Assembly (NCBI GenBank): GCA_038817885.1
Contig: JAWAZE010000001.1
Coordinates: 8,941 to 72,940, forward strand
Direction: 5' to 3'
Length of the DNA stretch: 64,000 nucleotides
Origin: Candidatus Bathyarchaeia archaeon
GTDB taxonomy: Archaea > Thermoproteota > Bathyarchaeia > Bathyarchaeales > DTEX01
The notes under the pieces are model-generated. The model was given only the letters and a program-made list of their open reading frames with translations. It had not been told where the DNA came from and did no database searches. Below, piece by piece: positions 12,859-55,691 of this stretch; positions within the stretch are counted from its first letter, which is position 1; every line of letters starts with the position of its first letter. The translations under genes and the position numbers were made by a program.

Positions 12859-13998
12859 ATGAACGCGCATTCACAAGCAGTAAAATATGTAATTAAAGCG
12901 AAGTTTGAGGTTGATGGGATAGTTGAGAAACCAGATGTTATCGGTGCAATCTTCGGTCAAACAGAAGGGCTTTTCGGCGCAGAATTAGATTTAAGGGAGC
13001 TCCAGAAGTCTGGCAGAGTTGGTAGAATAGAGGTTGAAATAACTTCACAGAAAGAAAATAAAACATCCGGGACAATAATCATTCCGACGAGCCTAGATAA
13101 GGTTTCAACGGCAATTATAGCTGCGAGTGTTGAGAGCATAGATAGAATTGGGCCATGTGCCGCTAAAATAACTTTAGAAAAAATTGAAGATGTTAGGGAG
13201 AGTAAACGTAAGGCTATAATTGAAAGGGCAAAAGAGATACTTCAGAGATGGAGTCTTGAAACATTGCCCGAGACCGAGGAGATGCTAAGAGAGGTTTCAG
13301 AAACAATCAGATTAGCAAAGATAAGGGAGTTTGGGTCGGAGAAGCTTCCAGCCGGGCCGGAAGTGGATTCTGCAAAGGAGATAATTATTGTTGAGGGGAG
13401 GGCAGATGTAATAAACCTCGTGAGACACGGCATATATAATGTTATAGCATTAGAGGGCATCAAGATACCTGAAACAATTATTAAATTAACTAGAGAGAAG
13501 GAGGCGACAGCTTTTCTAGATGGTGATCATGGTGGGGACCTAATTCTTAAGGAGCTGTTGAATGTCGCTAATATAAAGTATGTGGCTAGAGCTCCAAAAG
13601 GGAAGGAAGTTGAAGATTTATCAGCTAAGGAGATTGAAGAAGCCTTACGTAATAAGGTTTCGATTGAGGAGATTTTTGAGCGAAAAAAGAAGCGTAAAAG
13701 AATTCTCGTACCAAGGGAGATAGTTGCGGCGGCGGAGGAGCTTAGGGGGACCTTTGAAGCAATTCTTTTCAATGATAGAATGGAGAGGGTTGGTAGGCTC
13801 CCCGTGAGTGAGCTTGCTGAGAAACTAAAGGAGGTCGAGGGCGTAAATACTGTGGTTTTCGACGGGATAATAACTCAAAGGCTCGTTGATACGGCTAACG
13901 AAAGAAATGTCAAGTATCTTATTGGAGCCCGTATATCGGATGTAATAAAGCAGCCCCTAGGGGTCTCTCTACTAACATTCGACGATATACTTGACTAA
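12859..13998 (+). CDS. dnaG: Archaeal DnaG (Toprim primase-like protein, exosome-associated)
   Basis: N-terminus 'YVIKAKFEVDGIVEKPDVIGAIFGQTEGLFG' is characteristic of archaeal DnaG. Toprim motifs 'IIVEGRADVINL' and 'FLDGDHGGDLI'. Confidence 0.9.
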   Translation: MNAHSQAVKYVIKAKFEVDGIVEKPDVIGAIFGQTEGLFGAELDLRELQKSGRVGRIEVEITSQKENKTSGTIIIPTSLDKVSTAIIAASVESIDRIGPCAAKITLEKIEDVRESKRKAIIERAKEILQRWSLETLPETEEMLREVSETIRLAKIREFGSEKLPAGPEVDSAKEIIIVEGRADVINLVRHGIYNVIALEGIKIPETIIKLTREKEATAFLDGDHGGDLILKELLNVANIKYVARAPKGKEVEDLSAKEIEEALRNKVSIEEIFERKKKRKRILVPREIVAAAEELRGTFEAILFNDRMERVGRLPVSELAEKLKEVEGVNTVVFDGIITQRLVDTANERNVKYLIGARISDVIKQPLGVSLLTFDDILD

Positions 13999-14013: not shown

Positions 14014-16416
14014 TCAACCTTTTCCAAAAAATTCGAGTAGCGTCTGCGCCTTCCCAGTCTTAGGGGGCAACAAATCATTCTCCTTAATGCCAAATAGAGA
14101 AAGTATTCTCAGCGCCGCTGGGATAATTTGATTTGTTACATAGTATTCTATATCAATCTCATTATATGTCGCTAAAAGGTATGGTTTTGCCCGCTCATGA
14201 AGCTTACCTGAGCCAGCCATTATAACATAACCAACCTTATCACCAACAGTTAATGTCCAGCCCTCCTTCTGAAGAAGCCTTGCGGCTTCGACGTGTGGCG
14301 CCCTTACCTCATACTCCTCAGGAGGTTTTGTTAAAGTCTTCCATATTATTAGGTCACGGTACGGGATCCTCTTCTCCCTCAAGCTCGTTATATATCTACG
14401 TACATATTCCACGGCTTTCCTGACAGATTGCTCCCTCAAAATTACTTCTAAAACCTTTTCCTGGATGTTCTTTGCGACCTCTGCCCAGTCCCCTCTAACT
14501 ACCTCTAATCCAACTATGTCGAGCCTCCCATCCGGCATTAAGCCGCAGTAGCGCTTCTTCGCCTCGGTGAAGAGCACGCGCTTATAAATCTTGTCTGGCT
14601 TTATCTCTAAACCGAATCTTTCCTCAATAGTTTTAGATAGCTTTTCAATTTTCTCAGGCTCATTTTTCACGAAGATGCTGTCAGTGTCGCCGTAAATTAC
14701 CTCTAAGCCGAGACTCTTAGCAATCTTAATAGTATCCATAATAATGTGCCTACCCCATGCCGTAACTGCCTCGGCGACAGGCTTAATGTACCATCTGGCG
14801 CCTATCCAGCCAGCATAGCCATATGTTGCATTCGCAATCACTTTAATTGCTTTTTGACGAGAATCAAGAAGCCTATACTTAACGGTCCCAGGATCAGCTT
14901 TCTTAAGCTCCGCCCTCACATAATCTCTCGCTTTAATAAGTTTTGTGAGAACCTCACGATAAAATCCTGGCGGCTCCCTCCTAAACTTATGATTAACTTC
15001 GGGCGCTATGAAAACCCCGGACTCCGGCTCCGGCTCTTCAGGCGGGATGTATGTATCTGGCGAAGCATTATAAGCTATCATTATGTTAGGGTACATTGAT
15101 TTAAAGTCTAAGACGGCTACGTCTTCATGGATTCCAGGCTTAGGCTCTAAGACAAGAGCCCCAGCATATGGTGTATATGGTCTCTCGACCTTCTTTGGCA
15201 CCAGCTCGCTTATTTGGTACAAGTGACGTATCAAAAACCATTCAACCCTAAAGCCGACTGCTGCTGTACCGATGTGATCTAGAGGTAAGCCGACTAGGCT
15301 TGAGAGCTGAATGGCAAAGTCTAGGATGGCTTCAGCTATACCCATTATACATATCGTATTATCCATAGAAAATTTTAGCAGCACCGGTCTCTTTGCAGGG
15401 TCATCCCAGTATTGGGCATATTCAACATCCTCTATTAATGTTCTCTCCTCAATCCTCATGATCCCTAGGTAGTCGGCTATATTCTCAAGAGTCTTAATTT
15501 TGACCTCAGGGAACTCGTCTGCATAATCAAATAAGTCTATATTAGCCCTGCCAGTAATGGAGATATGCCCATATGTGCTTGTATGCGGTTCTGTATTCGC
15601 CCTGTCAATCTTTAGAGATAGCCCATTGATCCCTGCTCTTGCCATCAAATATGGTATGTCCTTCCTGTTGGTTTCAAAGCCAACAATTATATCCGGGTCA
15701 AATTCTCTCAAATATTTTATGAAATCGCTGATGATCTTTCCATCCTCTCCGACGTTCTCCGTAATGAACTGTTTCTCTTCGCCAGTGTTAGTTTTGGCTG
15801 AAATTATTATGATGGGGTTCTTTTCAGGCTTCGGCGAGCCTTTTGGGCTATAGCATATAATTGAGAAACCCAGGATTTTCAATTTTGGGTTCTCAATAAT
15901 CTCTGGTAAATATTTTGGTCTCGATGTTGCAACCAACACTTTATCAACTTGCATATTTAATACATTAGGCTCCTCCTCAGCTTCCACCTCATGCCAACCG
16001 CATGGGACAATATTATTATCAATCATATATCGCATAGAATATCTAATATCATCCTCAAGAAAGCCGCCGACGCCATTAACCCTTGAAATCGCCTTAATAT
16101 ACTCTTGCACTATATCTGGATCTTGGCAATAAACTTTAACGACTTTCACGGGTTTTCCAAAAAACTTCCGATCTACAACCTCCAAGCCAGTTATGTATGG
16201 TAAGCTGGCGCTCAACCGCTTTATCCTCTCAGCTATTTTCTCAGCGTCTTCCCCCGTCTCCGGAAGCACATAAAAGTATGTTATGAAGTCCCTGTCTATG
16301 AGTAAAACCCTCTCCCCCCTATCATCTATACCCCAAAGCCAGACCTCAGGATTATGCTCTCTAACCTCATAATTTATATCCAGCAACCAGAAGCGGTACA
16401 AAGGCAACTTTCGCAC
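14014..16416 (-). CDS. polB: Family B DNA polymerase
   Basis: 800 aa. Motif A 'LDFKSMYPNIM', motif B 'KVIANATYGYAG', motif C 'VIYGDTDSIFV'. The N-terminal exonuclease region starts 'WLLDINYEV'. Confidence 0.95.
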   Translation of the reverse strand: MRKLPLYRFWLLDINYEVREHNPEVWLWGIDDRGERVLLIDRDFITYFYVLPETGEDAEKIAERIKRLSASLPYITGLEVVDRKFFGKPVKVVKVYCQDPDIVQEYIKAISRVNGVGGFLEDDIRYSMRYMIDNNIVPCGWHEVEAEEEPNVLNMQVDKVLVATSRPKYLPEIIENPKLKILGFSIICYSPKGSPKPEKNPIIIISAKTNTGEEKQFITENVGEDGKIISDFIKYLREFDPDIIVGFETNRKDIPYLMARAGINGLSLKIDRANTEPHTSTYGHISITGRANIDLFDYADEFPEVKIKTLENIADYLGIMRIEERTLIEDVEYAQYWDDPAKRPVLLKFSMDNTICIMGIAEAILDFAIQLSSLVGLPLDHIGTAAVGFRVEWFLIRHLYQISELVPKKVERPYTPYAGALVLEPKPGIHEDVAVLDFKSMYPNIMIAYNASPDTYIPPEEPEPESGVFIAPEVNHKFRREPPGFYREVLTKLIKARDYVRAELKKADPGTVKYRLLDSRQKAIKVIANATYGYAGWIGARWYIKPVAEAVTAWGRHIIMDTIKIAKSLGLEVIYGDTDSIFVKNEPEKIEKLSKTIEERFGLEIKPDKIYKRVLFTEAKKRYCGLMPDGRLDIVGLEVVRGDWAEVAKNIQEKVLEVILREQSVRKAVEYVRRYITSLREKRIPYRDLIIWKTLTKPPEEYEVRAPHVEAARLLQKEGWTLTVGDKVGYVIMAGSGKLHERAKPYLLATYNEIDIEYYVTNQIIPAALRILSLFGIKENDLLPPKTGKAQTLLEFFGKG

Positions 16417-19790: not shown

Positions 19791-20861
19791 CTAAGCCCTT
19801 ATTCCCGTCAACTTTATGGACTTTTCCTCACATACCAAGAGGGTATCCTCTACACGCGCCCCGCCGAATCCTGGAATATAAATGCCTGGTTCAACGGTCA
19901 CGACATTACCCGCGAGTAGCAAATCTTCACTTGATGGCCCTAATGTTGGGGGTTCATGCACATTTAATCCTATACCATGACCTAGATTATGAACGAAGTA
20001 TTCGCCGTAACCATTTTCTGCAATGAATTTTCTGGCGGCATCATCAACATCCTTTGCCTTAACACCAGCCCTTATGTGGTTTATTGCTATCTTTTGCGCG
20101 TTTATAACGGTTTCATGTATATGCTTTTGTATCCGCGTCCCCTCCCCAACAATAACAGTTCTAGTCATATCCGCACAATATCCATGATGCTTAGCTCCAA
20201 TATCAATCACGACGAGATCCCCATCCCTAATTTCACGCTCACCTAAACCCCCATGCGGATAAGCTGTTTCTGGTCCACTGCAAACTATTGTATCGAATGC
20301 TACACCACTTGAACCTAGTCTACGCATTTCATATTCCGCCTCGGCGGCAACCTCCCACTCCCTCATGCCGGGCCTAATGACTTCAAGAGCCCTCTCCATT
20401 CCACGGCTCGTTAACTCCGCTGCCCTTCTAATAAATGCCAATTCGTTCTCATCCTTCACTTTCCTCAAAGACCAGATGACATCCTCTAATGATTCAACTT
20501 TAACTTCCTTTAGAGAGTTTTTCATCTTTTGGTACTCGGTGGCATCCATTCTGTCGAACCCTATGGACTTAAAGCCCCTCTTCAAAATCTCGTTAAAAAC
20601 TTTTTCCTCAACTTTTTCGCCAGATCTCACCAGCTCAACTGTTACATTTTCGGCGAGTCTTTTAGCATTTTCATAGTTTACTGAGTATACGAAGAGTACG
20701 CTCTCTCCCTCAACTGTAACTAAGAGTCTTGCACCCCATGAAAAATTAGTCAAATAATATATGTTCTTTTCGTCATTCACTAAGATTGCGTTAAAGCCCA
20801 TTTCAGCAATCTTTTCCCTCAGACTTTTAATGCGTTTCCCGTATGTCAAGTTGGACACCAA
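19791..20861 (-). CDS. M24-family Xaa-Pro dipeptidase/aminopeptidase
   Basis: 'DGDLVVIDIGAKHHGYCADMTRT', 'HNLGHGIGLNVHE', 'VTVEPGIY' and 'ARVEDTLLV' are the pita-bread metal-ligand motifs. Confidence 0.9.
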   Translation of the reverse strand: MVSNLTYGKRIKSLREKIAEMGFNAILVNDEKNIYYLTNFSWGARLLVTVEGESVLFVYSVNYENAKRLAENVTVELVRSGEKVEEKVFNEILKRGFKSIGFDRMDATEYQKMKNSLKEVKVESLEDVIWSLRKVKDENELAFIRRAAELTSRGMERALEVIRPGMREWEVAAEAEYEMRRLGSSGVAFDTIVCSGPETAYPHGGLGEREIRDGDLVVIDIGAKHHGYCADMTRTVIVGEGTRIQKHIHETVINAQKIAINHIRAGVKAKDVDDAARKFIAENGYGEYFVHNLGHGIGLNVHEPPTLGPSSEDLLLAGNVVTVEPGIYIPGFGGARVEDTLLVCEEKSIKLTGIRA

Positions 20862-20895: not shown

Positions 20896-22671
20896 TTAGA
20901 GGGATATTTTGTGCAGAATTTCCTCTGGCTTAAATTCCTCTTGGGATCTTATCGAAGCCTCTTCAACATATATCTGAATAGCATATCTCATGGAATCCCT
21001 ACTTATTGGTATAAAATCTTCTTTAGCGTTAAAGTACTCCATGAGTGATGCGGAGCATGCGAATCTTAAAGCTTTATCTTCGAGTCTTGCTGAGAACATA
21101 AGAGTATCATCTTTTATCTCGCTGAGTATGATCTCCCTGGCCTCGGTGATCAACTGATATGCATCCTCAGTTATCATTACTGACTTACATGGAAATTCAT
21201 TTTTAACGAGCGGGTGTTGCGTTTCAATTGCATAAATTAGGGTTAAGTGATCCCTTATCGCCTGCGCCATTCTCCCAATATTTAGTTTTCCAAGAAGGAC
21301 TTTCATCTGTCGTTCCGCTATCTCCATGAAGCGCTCCTTAGTTAAGCGGTGGAGTCTGCATAACATCCGATCCTCAATGGCCCTGAAATTTGGATCCTGG
21401 ATCGTTACATTATACCCCCTCTTACGAACCTCGACATTGTAATTTACGGTAAAGAAAGAGGTAAACTTGTATGGACCTATAACCTCCCGCTGGGTCTCAT
21501 ACTTTATTTCGCCCTGCTCCATGGCGATCTTAAGCGGCTCAACCATACCCTTATATCTGAAGAAATCATTAAACTCTGGAATTATGAAGTTGAACGTTCT
21601 CCCAGCGTAAGCTTGCCCAATCCTAATAAACCTAGCAGGCGTCATTCCCCCACAATAACGGTTTCTTCCAGGTATTCCATGTGCTGGCAATCCCATGCTC
21701 GGTTTCCCAAATACCATGTCTCTTGTCGCAAAACTTTTCCCTGTTCCAGGGTCACCGAATAGCGCCAGAGACCATCCTGTTCTCTTAACCATTTTTCCAC
21801 ATGGGTTAATTACTTCAGCGTTTGCCAATCCATACTGTTGAGTTAAGCTAAGTAAGCTATCAAAGTATAAGATTGGCCCAAAAATATCTTGAAGGTAGCT
21901 TGACAGCTTCAATATGTTGAAGGTTTTACCAAAATTTATCGCCTCTTCGAGTCTATTCTGAATTAGGTCAGTTAAATATGAGTTTAACTCCGAATCCATT
22001 TTCTCAAGGAGATTTCTTTCCTCATCTAATGAAACGGTTCCCCTCCTCTCCTCGGTTAGAGCTGCAGTTTGGATTTTAGGTTCTATTTGGAGCATCTTTT
22101 TTCCTTCACTTATCTCATTTTCAACTATTGGAAGCATCTCTCTTGGTATACTCCATTCTCTATATTTTTCGCCAATGTAAGACGTGGATATTATGCCTAA
22201 ATCTTCCAGATCGCTCAGCATTTCATAGGCCTGAGGTAGTTTAACGATCTCTTTAATAGTGTATGAGTCTATGATGCCGCCGCCCTTAACAATGGTCTTT
22301 AAGAAATTCATTCCAACTGAACCATACATTAATTTAAATCTGCGCAATCCATCACTAACAATCTTCCATGAACCATCGAGGAAGAGCTTTCCATTAATGA
22401 GCATGTAATATTTTCCCTTAAAGGTCGCCCAGTTTCTAGGCTCATATTTTTGGAATATCTGCTTTAGAACATCATCCGTTACTCTTGAAGATATCTCTGT
22501 GGAGACTTCATCTTCATCTATATCCCAGCAACAACTAAACCTTTCAAAATAAGGTATCTTTAACCATCTACCAATATCAAAGAGATGTCTTATTGTGTAA
22601 GCCTTCTTTAAGAGCTCCCTTCTTTCGGAGATTTTCTCCTGATGCTCTGAAATCAACAGCTTCCGCCCCAC
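20896..22671 (-). CDS. Orphan AAA+ ATPase, MCM/Lon(BrxL)-like core with an uncharacterised ~300-aa N-terminal region
   Basis: Walker A 'LFGDPGTGKSF'. Walker-B-position 'FNFIIPEFNDF' (compare MCM 'IDEFDK'; Asp replaced by Pro). 'LKIAMEQGEIKYE' (compare MCM 'EAMEQQTIS'). 'AIEDRMLCRL' (compare 'LLSRFDL'). No MCM OB/zinc N-domain is recognisable. Confidence 0.5.
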   Translation of the reverse strand: MGRKLLISEHQEKISERRELLKKAYTIRHLFDIGRWLKIPYFERFSCCWDIDEDEVSTEISSRVTDDVLKQIFQKYEPRNWATFKGKYYMLINGKLFLDGSWKIVSDGLRRFKLMYGSVGMNFLKTIVKGGGIIDSYTIKEIVKLPQAYEMLSDLEDLGIISTSYIGEKYREWSIPREMLPIVENEISEGKKMLQIEPKIQTAALTEERRGTVSLDEERNLLEKMDSELNSYLTDLIQNRLEEAINFGKTFNILKLSSYLQDIFGPILYFDSLLSLTQQYGLANAEVINPCGKMVKRTGWSLALFGDPGTGKSFATRDMVFGKPSMGLPAHGIPGRNRYCGGMTPARFIRIGQAYAGRTFNFIIPEFNDFFRYKGMVEPLKIAMEQGEIKYETQREVIGPYKFTSFFTVNYNVEVRKRGYNVTIQDPNFRAIEDRMLCRLHRLTKERFMEIAERQMKVLLGKLNIGRMAQAIRDHLTLIYAIETQHPLVKNEFPCKSVMITEDAYQLITEAREIILSEIKDDTLMFSARLEDKALRFACSASLMEYFNAKEDFIPISRDSMRYAIQIYVEEASIRSQEEFKPEEILHKISL

Positions 22672-22913
22672 ATTTCTTGAGAAAAATTACGGTAATAGTT
22701 ACTTAAATTCCTACAGATAAATTCACAATTTTAAAAGGCTGCAAAAATCCATCATATAAAAGAGGAGTCCACGTCAACAGAAGCAATTTTGTCATAAAAA
22801 TGTTAATATACCAAAAATGCAATTCTTTTTAAACAATTAAAAATAAAATAGAGATTCTTTCCTAACAGCCTCTCGATAGTATTCAAGATAATAAAGGCTT
22901 AATACTGATTCCT

Positions 22914-24053
22914 TTATCTAAAACAGGACCAGTAGGCGCTCAATATATCTTTTAGTTGATCAATTATTTTTTTAACCTTATTTATATTCTGCCATGGGTC
23001 CATTGGCGCTGGATAATGATTCTCTATGTTTTCTTCACTGCCATTTAATTCTGCTATTCCAGCTATTAATGCATACCAGCAGTAAGGTAAAACATGAATA
23101 TTATACCCACTTACAATGAGAAGGACAACCCTTCCATGGCATACCTCATCTGACACTTGGCTTATTAGACGCGCTATTTTAAAAAAGCCTTTGGCTGTCA
23201 GTCCGAGACTTCCTAGGTGATCAGCGAAGTGGGCGTCGCTTCCACCATTAGCTATAACGATTTCTGGTCTAAACTCCTTTGCGAGCGGCGGAAAAATCTC
23301 TTTTAGGGCATAAAGATAGGCTTCCTCACCAGTTCTCATGGGAAGTGGGATATTTATATTATAGCCTGATCCCTCACTATCCCCTACCTCGTTAATGTAG
23401 CCACGCCCTGGGTAAATGGTCATGGGATCTTGGTGTATTGAAATAAAGAGTACTGTTGGGTCTGAATAATATATGTCGCTTGTCCCATTCCCTGCATGGG
23501 CGTCGTAATCGAGAACTAGGAATCTCTTCACATTGAACTTCTCCCTTAAATATTCTATTAAAATCGCTATATCATTAAAGAGGCAGAATCCACCGCCATA
23601 ATCCCTGCCAGCGTGGTGAAAGCCCCCTCCAAGGGCTACCGCCCTCTCAAACTTCCCCCTAAAAACAGATTCCCCGGCCCTAATAACCCCACCAATAATG
23701 TACATTAGGGCCTCGAGAATCCCTTTTGAAGTTGGTGTATCTATGTCATATGGCTCATTCATCTCAGCCAAACGAAATATAGTGTCAACATAGTCTTTTG
23801 TATGCACTTTGAGGAGAATTTCCCTTCTAACGGGCTCCGGCCTTATTAATGATATGTTTGGCATATTGAAAAGTCCCTTCTTTTCAAAGTACTTTATAGC
23901 CTTTATGAACCTATCTCCCCTAAACGGATGATTAACGCCCAAATCATATTGAGTATATTTCTCATGATATACTATGCATATCTTTCTATGGGGCAAAGAA
24001 TTCTCTCCCACACATCTGATCAAGTTGATTAAGTAATCTATAGCATCCCTCAT
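22914..24053 (-). CDS. Histone-deacetylase-family amidohydrolase (AcuC/HDAC-like)
   Basis: 'GGGFHHAGRDYGGGFCLFNDIAI', 'LVLDYDAHAGNGT' and 'GGSDAH'. Confidence 0.85.
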   Translation of the reverse strand: MRDAIDYLINLIRCVGENSLPHRKICIVYHEKYTQYDLGVNHPFRGDRFIKAIKYFEKKGLFNMPNISLIRPEPVRREILLKVHTKDYVDTIFRLAEMNEPYDIDTPTSKGILEALMYIIGGVIRAGESVFRGKFERAVALGGGFHHAGRDYGGGFCLFNDIAILIEYLREKFNVKRFLVLDYDAHAGNGTSDIYYSDPTVLFISIHQDPMTIYPGRGYINEVGDSEGSGYNINIPLPMRTGEEAYLYALKEIFPPLAKEFRPEIVIANGGSDAHFADHLGSLGLTAKGFFKIARLISQVSDEVCHGRVVLLIVSGYNIHVLPYCWYALIAGIAELNGSEENIENHYPAPMDPWQNINKVKKIIDQLKDILSAYWSCFR

Positions 24054-33260: not shown

Positions 33261-33371
33261 TTAACCCTTAAAGGTATAAATAGATGTGGCATTTAAGTTT
33301 ATGCTTCTGTTTACATAACATTAAAGCTTCGCAAAATTTATATTTAGTTTAGTGTTTTAGAGTGCATCAAG

Positions 33372-33380
33372 CATATAAAT
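33372..33380 (+). promoter_or_regulatory. Putative TATA box for rpoK
   Basis: 'CATATAAAT' lies ~45-50 nt upstream of the rpoK reading frame. A GAGGGGGAG SD-like element follows at 33415-33423. Confidence 0.35.
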
Positions 33381-33425
33381 TGCCATTTAAAAATCTCCAT
33401 TCCTAAACAATAGTGAGGGGGAGAG

Positions 33426-33725
33426 ATTATTAAATCTACATCTGAGGAGCTTAAAAGCATAAACATTGAGAGTTCAAAAAAGAAGATTTTAATTGGGCCG
33501 CCTAAACTCACTCGTTTTGAAAAAGCTAGAATTATAGGCGCGAGGGCATTACAGATAGCTATGGGCGCCCCAATCTTAATAGAGGTTAAAGAAAATATGA
33601 AGAGCCCAATAGATATTGCGCTTGAGGAATTGAAACGCGGCGCCCTACCAATAACGATTCGTAGAACCCTCCCGAATGGAACCTACCAAGATATACCTTT
33701 AAAATGGCTTCTAGAAGAGGGATAA
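33426..33725 (+). CDS. rpoK: DNA-directed RNA polymerase subunit K (Rpo6/RpoK)
   Basis: Not in the ORF track. My translation of frame 3 gives '...[81 protein letters not shown]'. The frame is open from 33417 to the stop at 33723-33725. It has no ATG/GTG/TTG upstream of the conserved domain. The start is provisionally placed at ATT 33426. Confidence 0.8.
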
Positions 33726-33731
33726 AAGAGT

Positions 33732-33854
33732 GGATTGCCAGCTTTCCCGGCTTCGCGGGGCCGAAGACCCCACTAAAACCGGGAACGGAGCGCGGTTTAA
33801 CTTCCAAGTTCGGAATGGGTTTGGGTGTTTCCCGCACCCTTTGGCCGGCAATCC
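33732..33854 (-). rRNA. rrf: 5S ribosomal RNA
   Basis: The reverse complement reads GGATTGCCGGCCAAAGGGTGCGGGAAACACCCAAACCCATTCCGAACTTGGAAGTTAAACCGCGCTCCGTTCCCGGTTTTAGTGGGGTCTTCGGCCCCGCGAAGCCGGGAAAGCTGGCAATCC. It contains the universal 5S 'CCGAAC..GGAAGTTAA' loop-B/helix-III core and an 11-bp terminal helix I. That helix extends 4 bp further to 33728/33858, possibly a processing stem. Confidence 0.9.
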
Positions 33855-33917
33855 ACTCGATTATTCTGTTAATAATTCTCTCTCTTAACTTTTTCGCTTA
33901 GAGAACTAGGCATAATG

Positions 33918-33926
33918 TATATAAAA
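33918..33926 (+). promoter_or_regulatory. Putative TATA box for the tRNA gene
   Basis: 'TATATAAAA' is centred ~33 nt upstream of tRNA position 1 (33955). Confidence 0.4.
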
Positions 33927-33954
33927 TGGATTCTCACCAAGTTTTTATGATGGT

Positions 33955-34150
33955 GGGGCTGTGGTCTAGCATCAGCCCATCCAAGTGGGCTGCTAGAGAG
34001 GTATGACGACTGCTTAGTGCGGCTCCGCTCAAGCCGTTAAGGGCTCCAGATGCCAGAAAACGGGTTTACTGACCCGGTTTAGGGGATGAAGACTGTCTGG
34101 AGCTTGGAGAAACCCGTAGGTCGCCGGTTCAAGTCCGGCCAGCCCCACCA
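33955..34150 (+). tRNA. Intron-containing tRNA, best reconstruction tRNA-Val(UAC), with genomically encoded CCA
   Basis: Acceptor GGGGCTG (33955-61) pairs with CAGCCCC (34140-46), followed by A73 and CCA. T arm GCCGG-TTCAAGT-CCGGC (34123-39). D arm GTCT-AGC...GGTA-TGAC. The total of 196 nt means ~120 nt of intervening sequence. See findings for details. Confidence 0.8.
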
Positions 34151-34153
34151 TCA

Positions 34154-34169
34154 TTTTTAAAGCCTTTTT
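34154..34169 (+). terminator. Oligo-T tracts downstream of the tRNA (archaeal-type terminator)
   Basis: Two T5 runs (34154-58 and 34165-69) lie directly after the CCA end. Confidence 0.35.
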
Positions 34170-34239
34170 AAACGAAGGGCCTAGTTTCTTCTAAGAGAAA
34201 TAAGTTGATGAGGAATAAAAGGGGAAGTATTTTTAGTTT

Positions 34240-50585: not shown

Positions 50586-50852
50586 TTAACTGTAAATGCT
50601 AAGAACTTTCCTTATTCCACTAGCCGTCACAAAATATTTTCTGACTCCTGCACCCACCTTGACTTCGGCATATCCTTTTTCTATAAGTCTATTGAGGTTC
50701 TCCTCGACCCTCGGCTTTTCCATAGATGTCCAATATGATATTTCTTCGATTGAGAGCGCCCTTTCTGGATTTATTGCGCCAACATTATGCAGAATATAAA
50801 GAAGATATACATCGTCTGGGATTCGTGTTAATTTATCTTGCATAAAGATCAC
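50586..50852 (-). CDS. Small winged-helix (MarR/ArsR-like) protein
   Basis: 88 aa: 'LSIEEISYWTSMEKPRVEENLNRLIEKGYAEV'. The GTG at 50852 overlaps the upstream glycosyltransferase stop (GTGA). An alternative ATG at 50843 has a GGGAG SD. Confidence 0.5.
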   Translation of the reverse strand: MIFMQDKLTRIPDDVYLLYILHNVGAINPERALSIEEISYWTSMEKPRVEENLNRLIEKGYAEVKVGAGVRKYFVTASGIRKVLSIYS

Positions 50853-52015
50853 TCCCTAAGAGCTTTCTCATAAACTTCAATAGTTCTCCTCGCCACAGCC
50901 TCCCAGCTATACACTTCGTGAACCTTCCTTTTAGCATTTTGCACAAGCCAATGTGCATAGCCATGGTCAGATAAAATCTTATTCACACCCCACGCTATTG
51001 AGTCAGGGTTCTCCTTGTAAGCTAAGAAGCCAGTCTTATCATGCTCAATTATCTCTGCTAAACCACCAACGCTACTTGCAACTACGGGGATCCCGGCAGC
51101 CATCCCCTCCAGGGCAACTATCCCAAATGGTTCATAGACTGATGGTATCACCAGAACATCCGAGCTTAAAGTCAAGTCAATTACATCCTGGTCACTTAAG
51201 AACCCCAAAAATGTTATTTTATGGAGGCATCCAGTAGAATGTGCTAGATTCCAAAGGTTATCCTTAATCCAACCGTTTCCAATTATAACTATTCTAGCCT
51301 CCGGATGCCGCTCAATTATTTTTGGCGCAGCCATAATTAAATATTCTACGCCCTTTTGTGGGACGAGCCTTCCAATAAAGAGGACTATCCTCTCGCTTGG
51401 GTCTATTCCAAATCTCCTCTTAACGCTTTCACGGTCAACACTAACCTCATACTTTGCTATATCAATACCGTTTGGAATGACATCTATCTTCTCGCTTGGT
51501 AAACGGAAGTGACCTTTAATCTCACTCTTCATAGCGTTACTTGTCACAATCACCCTCTTTGACTCATAAGTTAGCCACCACTCAAATCCATCTATCAGAA
51601 ATGAATCTGGGCTATGGAGACCCTGCGCCCTACCTACTTCAGTGCTGTGCATCGTTAATACAAGCGGCACCCTCAAATAATGTTTTGAGGCTATACTGGC
51701 GGGCGCGACGAGCCAGTCATGTGCATGAATTAAATTAAATCTCTCATGTTTACTAATGTCAGCAATCTTCTTCTCTATAAAATGATTAAACAGTAATACC
51801 CAGGTAATGAAGTTTGGGTGACCCAATTCTATGGGGACTCTGTGAATCTTTACGCCACCCCACTCTTCATAGGAGGGTGCTCCGGGAAACTCCAAAGTGA
51901 ATATGTGAACAGTGTGTCCTTTCTTAGCGATCTCTCTTGTTAAACCTTCACAATGCCTTGATATACCGCCAACTATTCTTGGAGGGTACTCCCATGTAAT
52001 CATGCAAATGTTCAT
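50849..52015 (-). CDS. GT-B fold glycosyltransferase (GT4/GT5-like, glycogen-synthase-like)
   Basis: 'ICMITWEYPPRIVGGISRH', 'HAHDW' and the C-terminus 'PSVYEPFGIVALEGMAAGIPVVAS' (E-x7-E region). Confidence 0.85.
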   Translation of the reverse strand: MNICMITWEYPPRIVGGISRHCEGLTREIAKKGHTVHIFTLEFPGAPSYEEWGGVKIHRVPIELGHPNFITWVLLFNHFIEKKIADISKHERFNLIHAHDWLVAPASIASKHYLRVPLVLTMHSTEVGRAQGLHSPDSFLIDGFEWWLTYESKRVIVTSNAMKSEIKGHFRLPSEKIDVIPNGIDIAKYEVSVDRESVKRRFGIDPSERIVLFIGRLVPQKGVEYLIMAAPKIIERHPEARIVIIGNGWIKDNLWNLAHSTGCLHKITFLGFLSDQDVIDLTLSSDVLVIPSVYEPFGIVALEGMAAGIPVVASSVGGLAEIIEHDKTGFLAYKENPDSIAWGVNKILSDHGYAHWLVQNAKRKVHEVYSWEAVARRTIEVYEKALRE

Positions 52016-52146
52016 TTATTTTAACACGCTTTTGTTTAAGCTTAAATTATTATTTTTAAAGAGCATTATAGAATATTAATCTTCCTATGGAAATCATTCC
52101 AGCGGCATTAAAATATAATTTCATTCTTGATCCGAGATAATATTCT

Positions 52147-53394
52147 TTATGGAATAACTTCTTTATACACTCTAATCGTGCCTTCAGCGACTTTCCTCCA
52201 TGTAAACATTTCTAAAACCCTCTTTCTGGCATTCTCGCCGCATCTTCTTCTAAGATCTTCATCCTCTAGAAGAATTGTCACGAACTTTGCGATGTCGCTG
52301 GGGTCGTAAGGATTTATGTGAAAACCGGTTTGATTTGGCCCTGAGGGGATAACCTGTTCCCTCATGCCGCTCACGCCGCGGGCGCCGACGACGACGGGTT
52401 TACCCATACTCATCGCCTCGGTGCAAACTATTCCAAAGGGCTCGTACTTTGATGGAAAAATACAAACGTCAGCGGCAGCATAATACTTTATTCTTAAGTC
52501 CTCTGGCAAAAATTCATATTTAAGTATGACTTTATCCTGAAGATTAAGTCTAATCACCTCCTCTCTTAAGAGCTCCTCCTGCTCCCCAACACCAACTATA
52601 ACTAGTTTAGCTTTTGGCACACGGCTTAAAATCTCCGGCATCGCCAGTATCAGTATATCTGCGCCTTTAACCCACGTTAACCTCCCTATAAATAGGATCA
52701 TATATTCATCATCAGAGATCCCTAGGCTTCTTCTTAAGGCTAAAGCCTCCTCCCGAGGCACACTTCCCGGAGAATATTTCTCGGCGTCTATACCATTGTA
52801 CACGACGCGAATCTTCTTCTCATCGTAGCCTAGGCTAACAAGGTGATCACGCATGGCATAGCTCACCGTTATTATTCTCTCAGCGTAGCCAGCCGCGAGT
52901 CTCTCCAAACGCTTTATAGTGTCCGAGCCATCACCAGTCCGCCCCTGCTCAGTGCTATGTACGTGGAATATAAGGGGCTTATTCAGCCCCCTGCTGGCTA
53001 ATATCCCCCCTATCGAGCCAAGCCAGTCGTGCGCCGCGATTAAGTCGACTTTTCTCTTCTCCATTCTCACTAGATCGTTTACTAGCTTGCTGGCCGACAA
53101 TATATTATAGAGAAATATGTCCCCGAAGAACTTCTTTCCATTCTCGTTCCATCTCTGTATTTCTTCTGGTATAAACATTGGTAGTAGTAGGCTAATATTC
53201 ATGTTTTCGACTATTGGCCTATGTACCTCCACTCCTCCATATATGTCCCTCGTCGGGGCGTCCTTCGTATGCATGGCGAATACTGTGACATCATGTCCCA
53301 TTCTAACAAGTTCCCTTGTTATGTATTCGGCATATGTCCCAAGCCCGCCGACGAGATACGGTGGATACTCATAGGTAAAGAATACTATCTCCAT
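52147..53394 (-). CDS. GT-B fold glycosyltransferase (GT4/GT5-like, glycogen-synthase-like), paralog of 50849-52015
   Basis: 'IVFFTYEYPPYLVGGLGTY', 'AAHDW' and 'PSKYEPFGIVCTEAMSMGKPVVV'. Confidence 0.85.
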   Translation of the reverse strand: MEIVFFTYEYPPYLVGGLGTYAEYITRELVRMGHDVTVFAMHTKDAPTRDIYGGVEVHRPIVENMNISLLLPMFIPEEIQRWNENGKKFFGDIFLYNILSASKLVNDLVRMEKRKVDLIAAHDWLGSIGGILASRGLNKPLIFHVHSTEQGRTGDGSDTIKRLERLAAGYAERIITVSYAMRDHLVSLGYDEKKIRVVYNGIDAEKYSPGSVPREEALALRRSLGISDDEYMILFIGRLTWVKGADILILAMPEILSRVPKAKLVIVGVGEQEELLREEVIRLNLQDKVILKYEFLPEDLRIKYYAAADVCIFPSKYEPFGIVCTEAMSMGKPVVVGARGVSGMREQVIPSGPNQTGFHINPYDPSDIAKFVTILLEDEDLRRRCGENARKRVLEMFTWRKVAEGTIRVYKEVIP

Positions 53395-54113: not shown

Positions 54114-55691
54114 CTAACTTAACTTACTAAATTTCTTCAATTCTTCCAATCTCTTTTCTAATATAAATATTAAGATTTTTCTAGCGCTTTCTCCATCGTC
54201 TCCCAGATTCATAGGTAGACTTGATATTTTGGCGGCGAGATAATCATCGCCAATAACCTCAGAAATCCATCTCTTAAAATCACCCCTATTTAAGTGGAAA
54301 ATTATTGATTCGACGTCCACTCTCTTTATTGCTTTATAGAAATCCTCAAGGCTTGTAACCAATATATCTGTTGGGACGCCGATTTGGCGGAAGAACCTAA
54401 AGCCTTTACCCGGCGGCACATGTCTTAATAAGCGCCTATATTTAGATTCTGGCTTATTAAGTTCCATTAGGCATCTCGCTCCAAAATCAAATAGAACCTC
54501 AATATACGTTCTGAAGGCTTCTATCGAGCTTCCATGCGGATTAAATAGGCTGTGGACTATGCCAGATCCCCCACCCTTAGTACACATGTAATGAAAGTGG
54601 TCACTTGTCTGAAGGTACCGCCAAACCTTAAGTAAATTAGGGTGGTTTACCTCTTTAACAAGAAGCCCAATCTTATTAAGTAGCATAAATGAGATCTCTT
54701 GTTGAGAGTTTCCTAGCCATGCGCTTAAGTCCCGCTCAACATCAGCCCACGAGATAGCGTCCTTTGGAGGAACATCTATTATGTCGCATGGGGCATACTT
54801 TTGAATAACTTCTCTAGGAGTGGACCAGCATAAATTATTCCACTTTGAAACCTCCATTGGAAGCCACCTAAGAAACTCAAGTATTCCGCTCTCAGCCCAG
54901 TAATGCTCGCCGAAAGTCTCATAATCTAGAAATATCACTATGACTTGACCAAGGGTATGGGCGAGCCAGGCTGCATACTTGTCTGCTGTTAAGGGCCACT
55001 GATCCCACCACGTTGATGCAAAGCGAAAACCTATATCGTCTGACAGCCTATAATTGCGCAATAGAAGGTTAATTAAGGAGCCCTTAGCCCTATACACATA
55101 ATTTGGCGACCTCCAACCGAGTATTCTATCAACCCCCTCGGCGATCACTGCCTTAAATCCAAGAGATTCGGCGGTCTTAGCAACATCATTATTATATATG
55201 CACTCAGTATTCTCGAAGGTTTCCGGAACATAATTAAATAAATCTATAATAGCCTGTTTATGCATTCTAACTTGCTCAATGAGCTCTGATTCATCAAGAT
55301 TATTTAGACTTGCTAGTGAGTGATAGTAAGGTTGACTTAATAGCTCGGCGCATCCCGTTTCAACAATTTGTTTAAAGAAGTCTAATAGACTTGGATTCCA
55401 TCTCTCACATTGTTCAAGGAAGGTTCCAGAAAAACTGAAGGAGACTTTAAATGGTTTCCCTTCTCTACGAGATCTCTCTATCTGCTCTAAGATAATCTTG
55501 GTTGCTGGAAGATAGCATTTTTGAGAGACGCGCATGAAAATTTCCTTGTTTAAATGCTGATCAAAATAGAGATCAAAAAGATCCTTTACTTCAATATTTT
55601 TTAAGCCAATGGAGGTACCAAGTTCAAAACTACACTTCAATCTAAAAGGTTGATGAACCTCAAAAATCAGGCACACATCAACCAACTTCAA
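54114..55691 (-). CDS. Glycoside hydrolase family 57 (alpha-amylase/4-alpha-glucanotransferase-like)
   Basis: 'CLIFEVHQPFRL' and 'VIFLDYETFGEHYW' (GH57 catalytic-region pattern). ~525 aa. Confidence 0.8.
   Translation of the reverse strand: MKLVDVCLIFEVHQPFRLKCSFELGTSIGLKNIEVKDLFDLYFDQHLNKEIFMRVSQKCYLPATKIILEQIERSRREGKPFKVSFSFSGTFLEQCERWNPSLLDFFKQIVETGCAELLSQPYYHSLASLNNLDESELIEQVRMHKQAIIDLFNYVPETFENTECIYNNDVAKTAESLGFKAVIAEGVDRILGWRSPNYVYRAKGSLINLLLRNYRLSDDIGFRFASTWWDQWPLTADKYAAWLAHTLGQVIVIFLDYETFGEHYWAESGILEFLRWLPMEVSKWNNLCWSTPREVIQKYAPCDIIDVPPKDAISWADVERDLSAWLGNSQQEISFMLLNKIGLLVKEVNHPNLLKVWRYLQTSDHFHYMCTKGGGSGIVHSLFNPHGSSIEAFRTYIEVLFDFGARCLMELNKPESKYRRLLRHVPPGKGFRFFRQIGVPTDILVTSLEDFYKAIKRVDVESIIFHLNRGDFKRWISEVIGDDYLAAKISSLPMNLGDDGESARKILIFILEKRLEELKKFSKLS

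Follow-up and report, generated by a model that had tools for sequence, protein, structure and literature searches.

A divergent AAA+ ATPase family of the Bathyarchaeia with an MCM-like fold and an altered Walker B motif

What kind of protein is the ATPase encoded at positions 20896-22671, on the minus strand, of a 64-kb stretch of DNA from Candidatus Bathyarchaeia archaeon (contig JAWAZE010000001.1), and what might it do for the cell? Bathyarchaeia are among the most abundant uncultured archaea of sediments, and to our knowledge the majority of their conserved but functionally unassigned genes have yet to be studied. The first-pass annotation of this stretch (here called the window, meaning the whole 64,000 nucleotides (nt) analysed) had described the protein as an orphan MCM/Lon(BrxL)-like member of the AAA+ ATPases with an altered Walker B motif, and had suggested that it could be the remnant of a mobile element, a component of a defence system or a solo nucleic-acid motor or loader. 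The analysis presented here corrects that first reading, since the gene is a core, class-specific gene and not a mobile-element remnant. What is new is a very divergent AAA+ family with a distinctive N-terminal module, a Walker B motif that lacks its aspartate and a coiled-coil partner, and nothing in it contradicts established biology.

Fold and catalytic site of the ATPase

Two structures were predicted with AlphaFold2 (AF2), one of the full protein from an alignment of 43 close homologs (model 1) and one of residues 214-591 from a divergent alignment of 107 sequences (model 2). Model 1 resolved the N-terminal part, with a predicted local distance difference test (pLDDT) score of ~80-95, and was poor in the ATPase core (pLDDT below 50 for residues 364-441); a fold search of the PDB with the full model gave no match below E 0.09. 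Model 2 reached a pLDDT of 95.9 and a predicted template-modelling score (pTM) of 0.94, and each of its top 50 Foldseek matches in the PDB was an ATPase domain of MCM2-7 or archaeal MCM (E 1.6e-9 to 4.6e-8, template-modelling (TM) score 0.51-0.62, 340-400 columns, 12-16% identity, Foldseek probability 1.00). When the same model was compared with a library of viral structures, the best matches were replicative helicases and primase-helicases. As modelled, the AAA+ ATPase module (residues 282-591) most resembles the ATPase tier of MCM in its fold, in line with the MCM-like label of the first-pass annotation. The domains are as follows.

20896-22671, minus strand: open reading frame (ORF) of the ATPase, 591 residues from a GTG start, with the stop codon at 20896-20898
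22111-22671, minus strand: N-terminal module (residues 1-187), helical with a beta-hairpin (1-100), then a winged helix (~102-187)
22033-22110, minus strand: linker (residues 188-213), pLDDT below 50, variable in length and sequence in the alignment
21829-22032, minus strand: long helical hairpin (residues 214-281), made of helices 215-248 and 253-281, pLDDT above 95 in model 2
21343-21828, minus strand: AAA+ alpha/beta core (residues 282-443), from model 2, the Foldseek matches to MCM and hhalign to MCM, ComM and RavA
20899-21342, minus strand: C-terminal helical lid domain (residues 444-591), from model 2

Winged-helix-like segments had been suspected in the N-terminal part, and residues ~102-187 do form a winged helix according to their fold matches (MarR, ArsR and RosR), with weak matches of hidden Markov models (HMMs) to MarR and TFE. 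The helical hairpin at 214-281 is conserved and carries the motif LYFDSLLS.TQQYGLA. As first annotated, the protein has neither an MCM N-terminal OB/zinc domain nor a Lon protease domain, none being found in Pfam or in the AF2 model, and the alignment of the N-terminal part contained no cysteine cluster equivalent to the invariant cysteines of MCM. From the hairpin onwards, the secondary structure of model 2 follows the AAA+ plan, with beta1 and the P-loop, beta3, helix 377-384 (EPLKIAME), the pre-sensor-1 hairpin, beta4, helix 427-434 followed by R435 and then beta5, and finally the lid.

Profile alignments with hhalign placed the protein more broadly. For the MCM comparison a profile of nine annotated viral MCMs was used, there being no canonical MCM gene among the loci that were fetched; it aligned over 110 columns (54% probability), from Walker A through G..GhT.A and from Walker B to AMEQ. 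The best single-sequence score was obtained with Escherichia coli YifB/ComM (72%, E 3.5e-5, with 124 columns spanning Walker A to the pre-sensor-1 hairpin), and E. coli RavA aligned over 143 columns (34%) that included DRML.RL and the sensor-2 helix. Since these alignments, although weak, covered several motifs, whereas those with E. coli Lon (22%, 28 columns) and ClpX (9.5%, 19 columns) were confined to the P-loop, the window protein is a member of the MCM/ComM(Mg-chelatase)/MoxR assemblage within the AAA+ proteins, a very divergent one that is nearest to MCM in fold.

The motifs GDPGTGKS, IIPEFND, AMEQGEI and DRMLCRL, all of which had been noticed at first pass, lie at residues 306-313, 363-369, 383-389 and 434-440, respectively, and the catalytic site can be laid out around them.

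21733-21756, minus strand: Walker A, GDPGTGKS (residues 306-313), with G311 and K312 at least 90% conserved in the divergent alignment
21565-21591, minus strand: strand beta3 and altered Walker B, NFIIPEFND (residues 361-369), in which P365 replaces the aspartate and E366 is kept
21466-21525, minus strand: AMEQGEI (residues 383-389) running into the pre-sensor-1 beta-hairpin (388-402; strands 388-392 and 397-402)
21436-21438, minus strand: sensor-1 asparagine N412 at the end of beta4 (VNYN), from model 2 and the alignment
21352-21372, minus strand: DRMLCRL (residues 434-440) with the putative arginine finger R435, which is at least 90% conserved, aligned with YDRMLIRL of RavA
21079-21096, minus strand: putative sensor-2 arginine R529 in FSARLE, at least 90% conserved, aligned with SDRRWKKAIRL of RavA

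AMEQGEI aligns in hhalign with the AMExQxV of MCM, N412 is one of two invariant columns in a divergent alignment of 48 sequences, and R529 opens the helix 529-548 of model 2. Even with sequences of as little as 23% identity included, K312, E366, N412, R435 and R529 each keep a conservation of at least 90%.

The unusual element is the Walker B motif. Strand beta3 of model 2 spans N361-I364 and is followed by P365-E366, the MCM profile pairs IVPEF with IDEF, and D-E or E-E stands at positions 365-366 in two of the three most divergent relatives, so that the sequence IIPEFND does occupy the Walker B position, as had been proposed. Another placement, on F362-I363, is implied by the ComM alignment, which pairs PEF with the LPEF that follows the D-E of ComM; P365-E366 was preferred to it, since the strand in the AF2 model ends at I364, the MCM profile pairs PEF with DEF, and the divergent relatives carry DE or EE. 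In both sequence sets, close (n=43) and divergent (n=48), proline or threonine occupies the place of the Walker B aspartate, E366 and F367 are invariant or nearly so, and the same holds for N368 and D369 in the close set. Because the catalytic glutamate, sensor 1, the arginine finger and sensor 2 are all conserved, the altered Walker B is, as judged from the alignments, a derived feature of the family and not a sign of decay, and the pattern of conserved residues points to a nucleotide site that would still function but hold Mg2+ in a derived manner. The loss of the Mg-binding aspartate in every member, with the catalytic glutamate kept, makes the family a natural test case for what this aspartate does.

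Inheritance and genetic context

The protein is not the orphan it had seemed. A homolog search returned more than 1069 relatives, of which over 1000 are full-length homologs at 54-81% identity. The best 120 all extend over the full length, at 54-100% identity, and have either no name or only that of a 'hypothetical protein' from Bathyarchaeia/Bathyarchaeota. Scanning one genome per GTDB species gave 338 family loci, of which the best 80 were all from metagenome-assembled genomes (MAGs) of Bathyarchaeia, five of them closed chromosomes. In an exhaustive HMM search of 1.84 billion representative proteins only 225 clusters were recovered, and the family is therefore narrow yet deeply conserved. 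Going by these homologs, the family is Bathyarchaeia-wide and undescribed.

The label 'uncharacterised' was apt, since no profile library placed the window protein in a characterised family. Searches of Pfam, NCBIfam, PADLOC, PHROGs and PDB sequences with the single protein gave nothing useful, those of the PDB with the family profiles A1 and A3 gave only weak winged-helix or P-loop matches, and no description of the family was found in the searchable literature. Thus an ATPase carried throughout a major archaeal class is represented in none of Pfam, NCBIfam, PADLOC and the PDB.

Comparison with the surroundings marked the gene as native. Its GC content is 40.4% against 42.4% for the window, and its codon usage ranks 11th of 28 genes in distance from the window mean, an unremarkable position without a foreign signature. 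The downstream order of genes for an M24 peptidase, AMMECR1, a proteasome beta subunit and a 114-residue protein is common to relatives down to 57% identity, and the neighbours in the window also include an ABC transporter in addition to AMMECR1 and the proteasome subunit. Across loci, the identity of ATPase orthologs (56-81%) tracks that of the M24 orthologs and lies slightly below that of AMMECR1 and the proteasome subunit; the rate of evolution of the ATPase family is thus about as low as that of the adjacent M24 peptidase gene. No relative was found by tblastn in 50,697 phage and 72,556 plasmid records, nor on viral contigs when IMG/VR was scanned with a pattern. The vicinity of the gene holds no integrase, repeats or tRNA, no methyltransferase, nuclease or other defence genes occur nearby in the window, and PADLOC matched neither the ATPase nor its distant relatives. 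The ATPase gene is therefore a native, vertically inherited chromosomal gene under purifying selection, and the earlier view of it as a mobile-element remnant or typical defence gene is not supported; the class-wide distribution of its homologs and their synteny with core genes point the same way.

Two members of the family carry inteins, which are independent and sit in catalytic motifs, at 373/374 in P0138 and at 429/430 in P0121. The P0138 intein (residues ~341-861) follows EFNDWFKY, just past Walker B, and has a LAGLIDADG endonuclease domain, and the P0121 intein (~428-900) follows DPNF, just before the arginine-finger motif, and has a helix-turn-helix (HTH) domain. According to published work (PMC4760082), inteins favour conserved sites in ATP-binding proteins, those of the replisome among them, and the placement seen here is the one described for replication and repair ATPases. 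By analogy this pattern fits a housekeeping nucleic-acid enzyme, which it does not prove.

The limits of the gene and its immediate surroundings are the following.

22654-22656, minus strand: probable start codon TTG (ORF residue 6), giving a product of 586 residues that begins M-I-S-E
22672-22913, minus strand: AT-rich spacer, 242 nt, 27.3% GC against 42.4% for the window
19791-20861: flanking gene for a Creatinase_N and Peptidase_M24 protein (Pfam match)
22914-24053: flanking gene for a Hist_deacetyl (HDAC-like) protein (Pfam match)

The ORF predicted at first pass is real, as are the flanking M24 peptidase and HDAC-like genes, both families being matched in Pfam. Its 591 residues are counted from a GTG; because the NCBI protein that is 100% identical to the ORF product (P0001) has 586 residues and the M-I-S-E start is conserved in relatives, the TTG at 22654-22656, and not the upstream GTG, is probably the real start. 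The sequence TTGAT(T/C)(T/C)CAGAG at this start is kept in four close relatives. If the TTG is used, the spacer upstream lengthens to 257 nt.

This spacer is as AT-rich as had been noted, and in a crude ORF map of the window it is the most AT-rich of the gaps above 200 nt, but it is not the longest, since five gaps exceed its 242 nt (979, 376, 349, 347 and 316 nt). A structured RNA or a replication origin in this segment was rejected: an Rfam scan of 22672-22913 gave no match, the segment contains no repeat arrays, including direct or inverted ones resembling origin recognition boxes (ORBs), and its predicted RNA fold is no more structured than shuffled controls (z = +0.43). Two blocks of it are conserved among the four closest relatives, one at ~22700-22712 (minus strand; AAGTAACTATTA), ~40-50 nt before the start codon, and one at ~22790-22845 (minus strand; TTTTAAT..TGTTCAAAAAGA...GTATATTAGCATTTTTATGA). 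These blocks may be promoter or regulatory elements, and the spacer as a whole is probably an ordinary promoter and 5' leader region.

The first-pass annotation had seen no partner genes, and this is true of the window locus, but most Bathyarchaeia do have a tightly linked upstream gene. Clustering of the ORFs of 83 loci revealed a gene for a ~545-residue protein, directly upstream and on the same strand, in 60 of the 69 informative loci (those with at least 1.8 kb of upstream sequence). The gap between the two genes has a median of 16.5 nt, and 30 of 58 pairs are separated by 20 nt or less or overlap, nine of them by 4 nt. In most Bathyarchaeia the ATPase is therefore the second gene of a tight two-gene unit, whose first gene is found, for instance, at these positions.

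L020:1439-3097: partner gene, typical example
L013:4229-5887: partner gene
L044:4365-5990: partner gene
L061:1587-3227: partner gene, as in ~55 other loci

At each end the partner protein has a conserved globular domain, and its K/E/R-rich centre of ~230 residues matches only coiled coils, such as keratin, PspA/Vipp1 and the JetC/MukB arm. It had no match in Pfam and none in the PDB or PADLOC beyond coiled-coil noise, and searches for its homologs returned mostly coiled-coil sequences or fragments only. Its median identity is 31%, whereas the ATPase reaches 61%. At nine loci the partner is missing, namely in the window and its closest relatives (L002/L012, L004-L006, L008, L011 and L035), where other genes, including the HDAC-like gene, have taken the place of the upstream block; HMMs built from the two terminal domains of the partner found nothing in the 64-kb window. 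One MAG, CAZQDW01, has two diverged pairs of partner and ATPase on different contigs (L028:1691-3436 and L076:2313-4070), with copies 55% and 50% identical to the window protein, which could reflect duplication of the module or a mixed bin.

Shared modules and candidate functions

Both halves of the protein recur in other combinations. Seven representative clusters join the N-terminal module alone (~3-200) to TIR domains and one joins it to a Ras-like GTPase (P0234), and in paralogous branches the ATPase module occurs with helix-hairpin-helix (HhH) motifs (P0140, P0149, P0162), with an Mrr nuclease domain (P0142) or with an AbiEi-type winged helix (P0168), one member also showing a weak match to the ABC-3C CTD1 domain. 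Fusions of the N-terminal module lie at these positions.

L088:6306-7358: TIR fusion with the N-terminal module
L089:3377-4423: fusion with the N-terminal module
L085:115-2100: fusion with the N-terminal module

In L088 the fusion is flanked by HTH/ImmA-type genes and by a serine recombinase, surroundings that resemble those of mobile or defence genes, and another TIR fusion adjoins a faint HEPN match. A distant bacterial relative, P0155, is part of a cluster of seven genes on the same strand (L087:2212-11610), right after a 550-residue classic AAA (PF00004) ATPase; the other genes of the cluster had no Pfam matches, and it may represent an uncharacterised multigene system. The archaeal relative P0129 stands solitary among housekeeping genes.

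The main argument for a motor that acts on DNA is that the domains swapped onto the N-terminus of the ATPase module are almost all DNA-binding or DNA-cutting ones. Together with the MCM-fold core and the winged helix, this leaves 'uncharacterised nucleic-acid motor' as the best reading of its probable function. In its specific form, to which we give about an even chance, the protein would be a ring-forming MCM-type ATPase, targeted to DNA by its winged helix, that moves on or remodels DNA and works with the coiled-coil protein in most Bathyarchaeia. Like its structural relatives, it would assemble into a ring with the ATP sites between subunits and R435 acting in trans. E366 would be the catalytic base for ATP hydrolysis, and Mg2+ would be held without the usual aspartate, perhaps aided by the invariant N368 and D369. 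The winged-helix module would bring the motor to the DNA along which it moves or which it remodels, the coiled-coil protein would be a structural or regulatory partner, and the role would be one in class-specific genome maintenance and not that of the replicative helicase.

Several observations weigh against this proposal. The profile alignments bring the protein about as near to RavA, a MoxR ATPase that remodels proteins, as to MCM. Conserved acidic residues (Y-E-T-x-x-E) flank the tip of the pre-sensor-1 hairpin, which from sequence alone seems unlike the basic tip expected for a contact with DNA, and no helix-2 insert shows in the predicted secondary structure, in which helix 345-355 is uninterrupted and hhalign places gaps where MCM has the insert. 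The missing Walker B aspartate could mean slow or regulatory hydrolysis rather than hydrolysis of the motor type. The partner gives no functional clue and is not found at the window locus, and the sharing of modules with TIR proteins and the bacterial island relative hint at roots in conflict systems.

A more far-reaching version takes up this last point. It sees a lineage-specific, two-component chromosome-maintenance machine, composed of an MCM-type ring motor with its winged helix and Asp-less Walker B and of the coiled-coil protein, which would stand outside the known archaeal replication, repair and SMC-type systems and whose modules, to judge by the TIR, Mrr and HhH fusions, would have come from conflict systems or been donated to them. 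We regard this as a tentative idea, somewhat improbable as a whole. If it were true, replication restart, branch migration or DNA organisation would be examples of the functions involved.

The alternative that survives best is a fixed or domesticated immune or stress effector, now universal in Bathyarchaeia, whose N-terminal module senses an invader or signal and whose ATPase acts on foreign DNA in the manner of BrxL, an MCM-like, ATP-dependent DNA-binding ring of the BREX system (PMC10164562). The TIR fusions and their island contexts are the main argument for roots of this kind, to which can be added the Ras-like GTPase fusion, the Mrr and AbiEi-like N-termini, the ABC-3C CTD1 match and the bacterial cluster beside a classic AAA ATPase. 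We nevertheless hold an effector to be unlikely, since the family is present throughout the class in synteny with core genes and with core-like substitution rates, has no homologs on phages, plasmids or viral contigs and no defence genes nearby in the window, and carries inteins typical of housekeeping ATPases (PMC4760082); PADLOC, moreover, matched neither the ATPase nor its distant relatives nor, coiled-coil noise aside, the partner.

Could the protein instead act on its partner? In a MoxR/RavA-like remodeller the coiled-coil protein would be substrate or regulator and DNA would not be acted upon, by analogy with an AAA+ engine that disassembles a coiled-coil polymer. The RavA alignment (143 columns with DRML.RL and sensor-2), the acidic residues at the pre-sensor-1 hairpin and the nature of the partner (a coiled coil of ~230 residues, from a gene that is often translationally coupled) are consistent with this, as is the partner's fast evolution (31% against 61% median identity), structural substrates often evolving fast. 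The top 50 fold matches, however, are all MCMs and the best viral ones replicative helicases, the N-terminal modules of the protein and its relatives are of DNA-binding types (winged HTH, HhH, Mrr), and in the clade of the window the ATPase persists although the flanks examined hold no partner gene. No VWA partner was found, and AAA_3 and AAA_5 went unmatched save for one weak AAA_5 match among 48 members. Such a remodeller is accordingly a doubtful candidate.

The location of an AAA+/winged-helix gene directly downstream of an AT-rich spacer of 242 nt, 5-8 kb from genes for a family-B DNA polymerase and a Toprim (DnaG-like) protein, might recall an Orc1/Cdc6-like initiator or loader that binds the spacer as a replication origin. 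This is very improbable, as the spacer holds no ORB-like direct or inverted repeat arrays, GC skew has no turning point at 22.7 kb, most Bathyarchaeia have the partner gene upstream with almost no spacer, and the domain order is the reverse of that of Orc1/Cdc6, with no Cdc6 match in Pfam. A solo orphan left behind by a mobile element and possibly decaying, for which only the lack of a partner in the 64-kb window and the missing Walker B aspartate could speak, is effectively refuted by more than 1000 full-length homologs that share the altered motif with the other catalytic residues conserved, by native composition and codons, by conserved synteny, and by the lack of mobile-element homologs and of any integrase, repeats or tRNA nearby.

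For the DNA motor, which remains our preferred reading, the coiled-coil partner and the modules shared with TIR, nuclease and HhH proteins are concrete experimental handles, and the family lends itself well to structural and biochemical studies of an archaeal class that is both major and uncultured.

Other features of the window are listed below.

33733-33852, minus strand: stand-alone 5S rRNA gene (Rfam, 71.4 bits)
12859-13998, plus strand: gene with a Toprim domain (DnaG-like)
14014-16416, minus strand: gene for a family-B DNA polymerase
50849-53394, minus strand: two adjacent GT4 glycosyltransferase genes, which also score on the Pfam model 'GT4-conflict'
54114-55691: GH57 gene

The 5S rRNA gene sits in the 979-nt gap at 33261-34239, the largest ORF-free gap of the window, and no 16S or 23S rRNA or tRNA was detected in the 64 kb. 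The Toprim and polymerase genes are convergent and lie 5-8 kb downstream of the ATPase gene, and no orc1/cdc6 or MCM gene was seen among the window ORFs scanned. The GT4 pair and the GH57 gene are probably ordinary genes of glycogen or sugar metabolism.

Comparison with known AAA+ families

By sequence and domain content the window protein falls outside each of the named families to which it can be compared. Pfam models were searched for this purpose with the window protein and with 48 members of the family.

An Orc1/Cdc6 identity is contradicted by the architecture, in which a winged HTH is N-terminal and an MCM-fold ATPase C-terminal, the reversed order, and Cdc6 models matched neither the protein nor the 48 members. 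With MoxR proteins (RavA) it shares a weak profile similarity over the C-terminal half of the ATPase and the same broad assemblage. A VWA-domain partner is the hallmark of MoxR systems, and no VWA gene occurs in the window flanks or at related loci; AAA_3 and AAA_5 did not match the window protein, and the single AAA_5 match among the 48 members was weak.

The affinity to Lon/BrxL proposed at first pass found no support. Like BrxL, the protein is a stand-alone AAA+ ATPase without an MCM N-terminal tier and, if the analogy extends to assembly, with an MCM-like ring architecture. It lacks, however, the Lon-type C-terminal domain, with no match to the Lon_C and LON models or to BrxL in PADLOC and the P-loop alone in common with Lon, and its family is class-wide rather than patchy. 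The BREX genes for the PglX methyltransferase, BrxC and PglZ are absent from the vicinity of the gene in the window, and the neighbours in 80 related loci are the same or other housekeeping genes.

ComM/YifB, a Mg-chelatase-like AAA+ branch-migration helicase (PMC6158740, PMC11612176), is a DNA motor of the same assemblage, and the hhalign result speaks for relatedness and not for membership. ComM has a canonical D-E Walker B and an N-terminal Lon-like ChlI domain, whereas the window protein has no ChlI domain, and no match was obtained with the Mg_chelatase, ChlI or Mg_chelatase_C models. ComM also serves bacterial competence, has a different phyletic range and was not among the top 50 fold matches.

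The closest relationship is with MCM. The order and wording of the motifs are alike, with GDPGTGKS, G..GhT.A after Walker A, hhhh-x-E-F, AMEQ and the pre-sensor-1 hairpin, the sensor-1 asparagine, the x-R finger motif before beta5 and the sensor-2 arginine, and the nearest solved folds are archaeal MCM and eukaryotic Mcm2-7 (TM ~0.6). Even so, the Pfam models MCM, MCM_N, MCM_OB and MCM_lid gave no match at E<=1 with the window protein or at E<=10 with the 48 members, and no MCM chain was matched in HMM searches of the PDB. In place of the OB/zinc tier the protein has its helical and winged-helix module and the helical hairpin, the Walker B aspartate of the family is replaced by proline or threonine, the helix-2 insert is apparently absent, and a coiled-coil partner stands where MCM has partners of the GINS/Cdc45 type. 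An MCM-type core with a non-canonical N-terminal module is also found in those MCM-like helicases of viruses and prophages that lack the canonical N-terminus, such as BcMCM (PMC2715239) and the archaeal virus MCMs; these, however, are recognisable as MCMs by sequence and reside in mobile elements, whereas the Bathyarchaeal family is chromosomal and syntenic.

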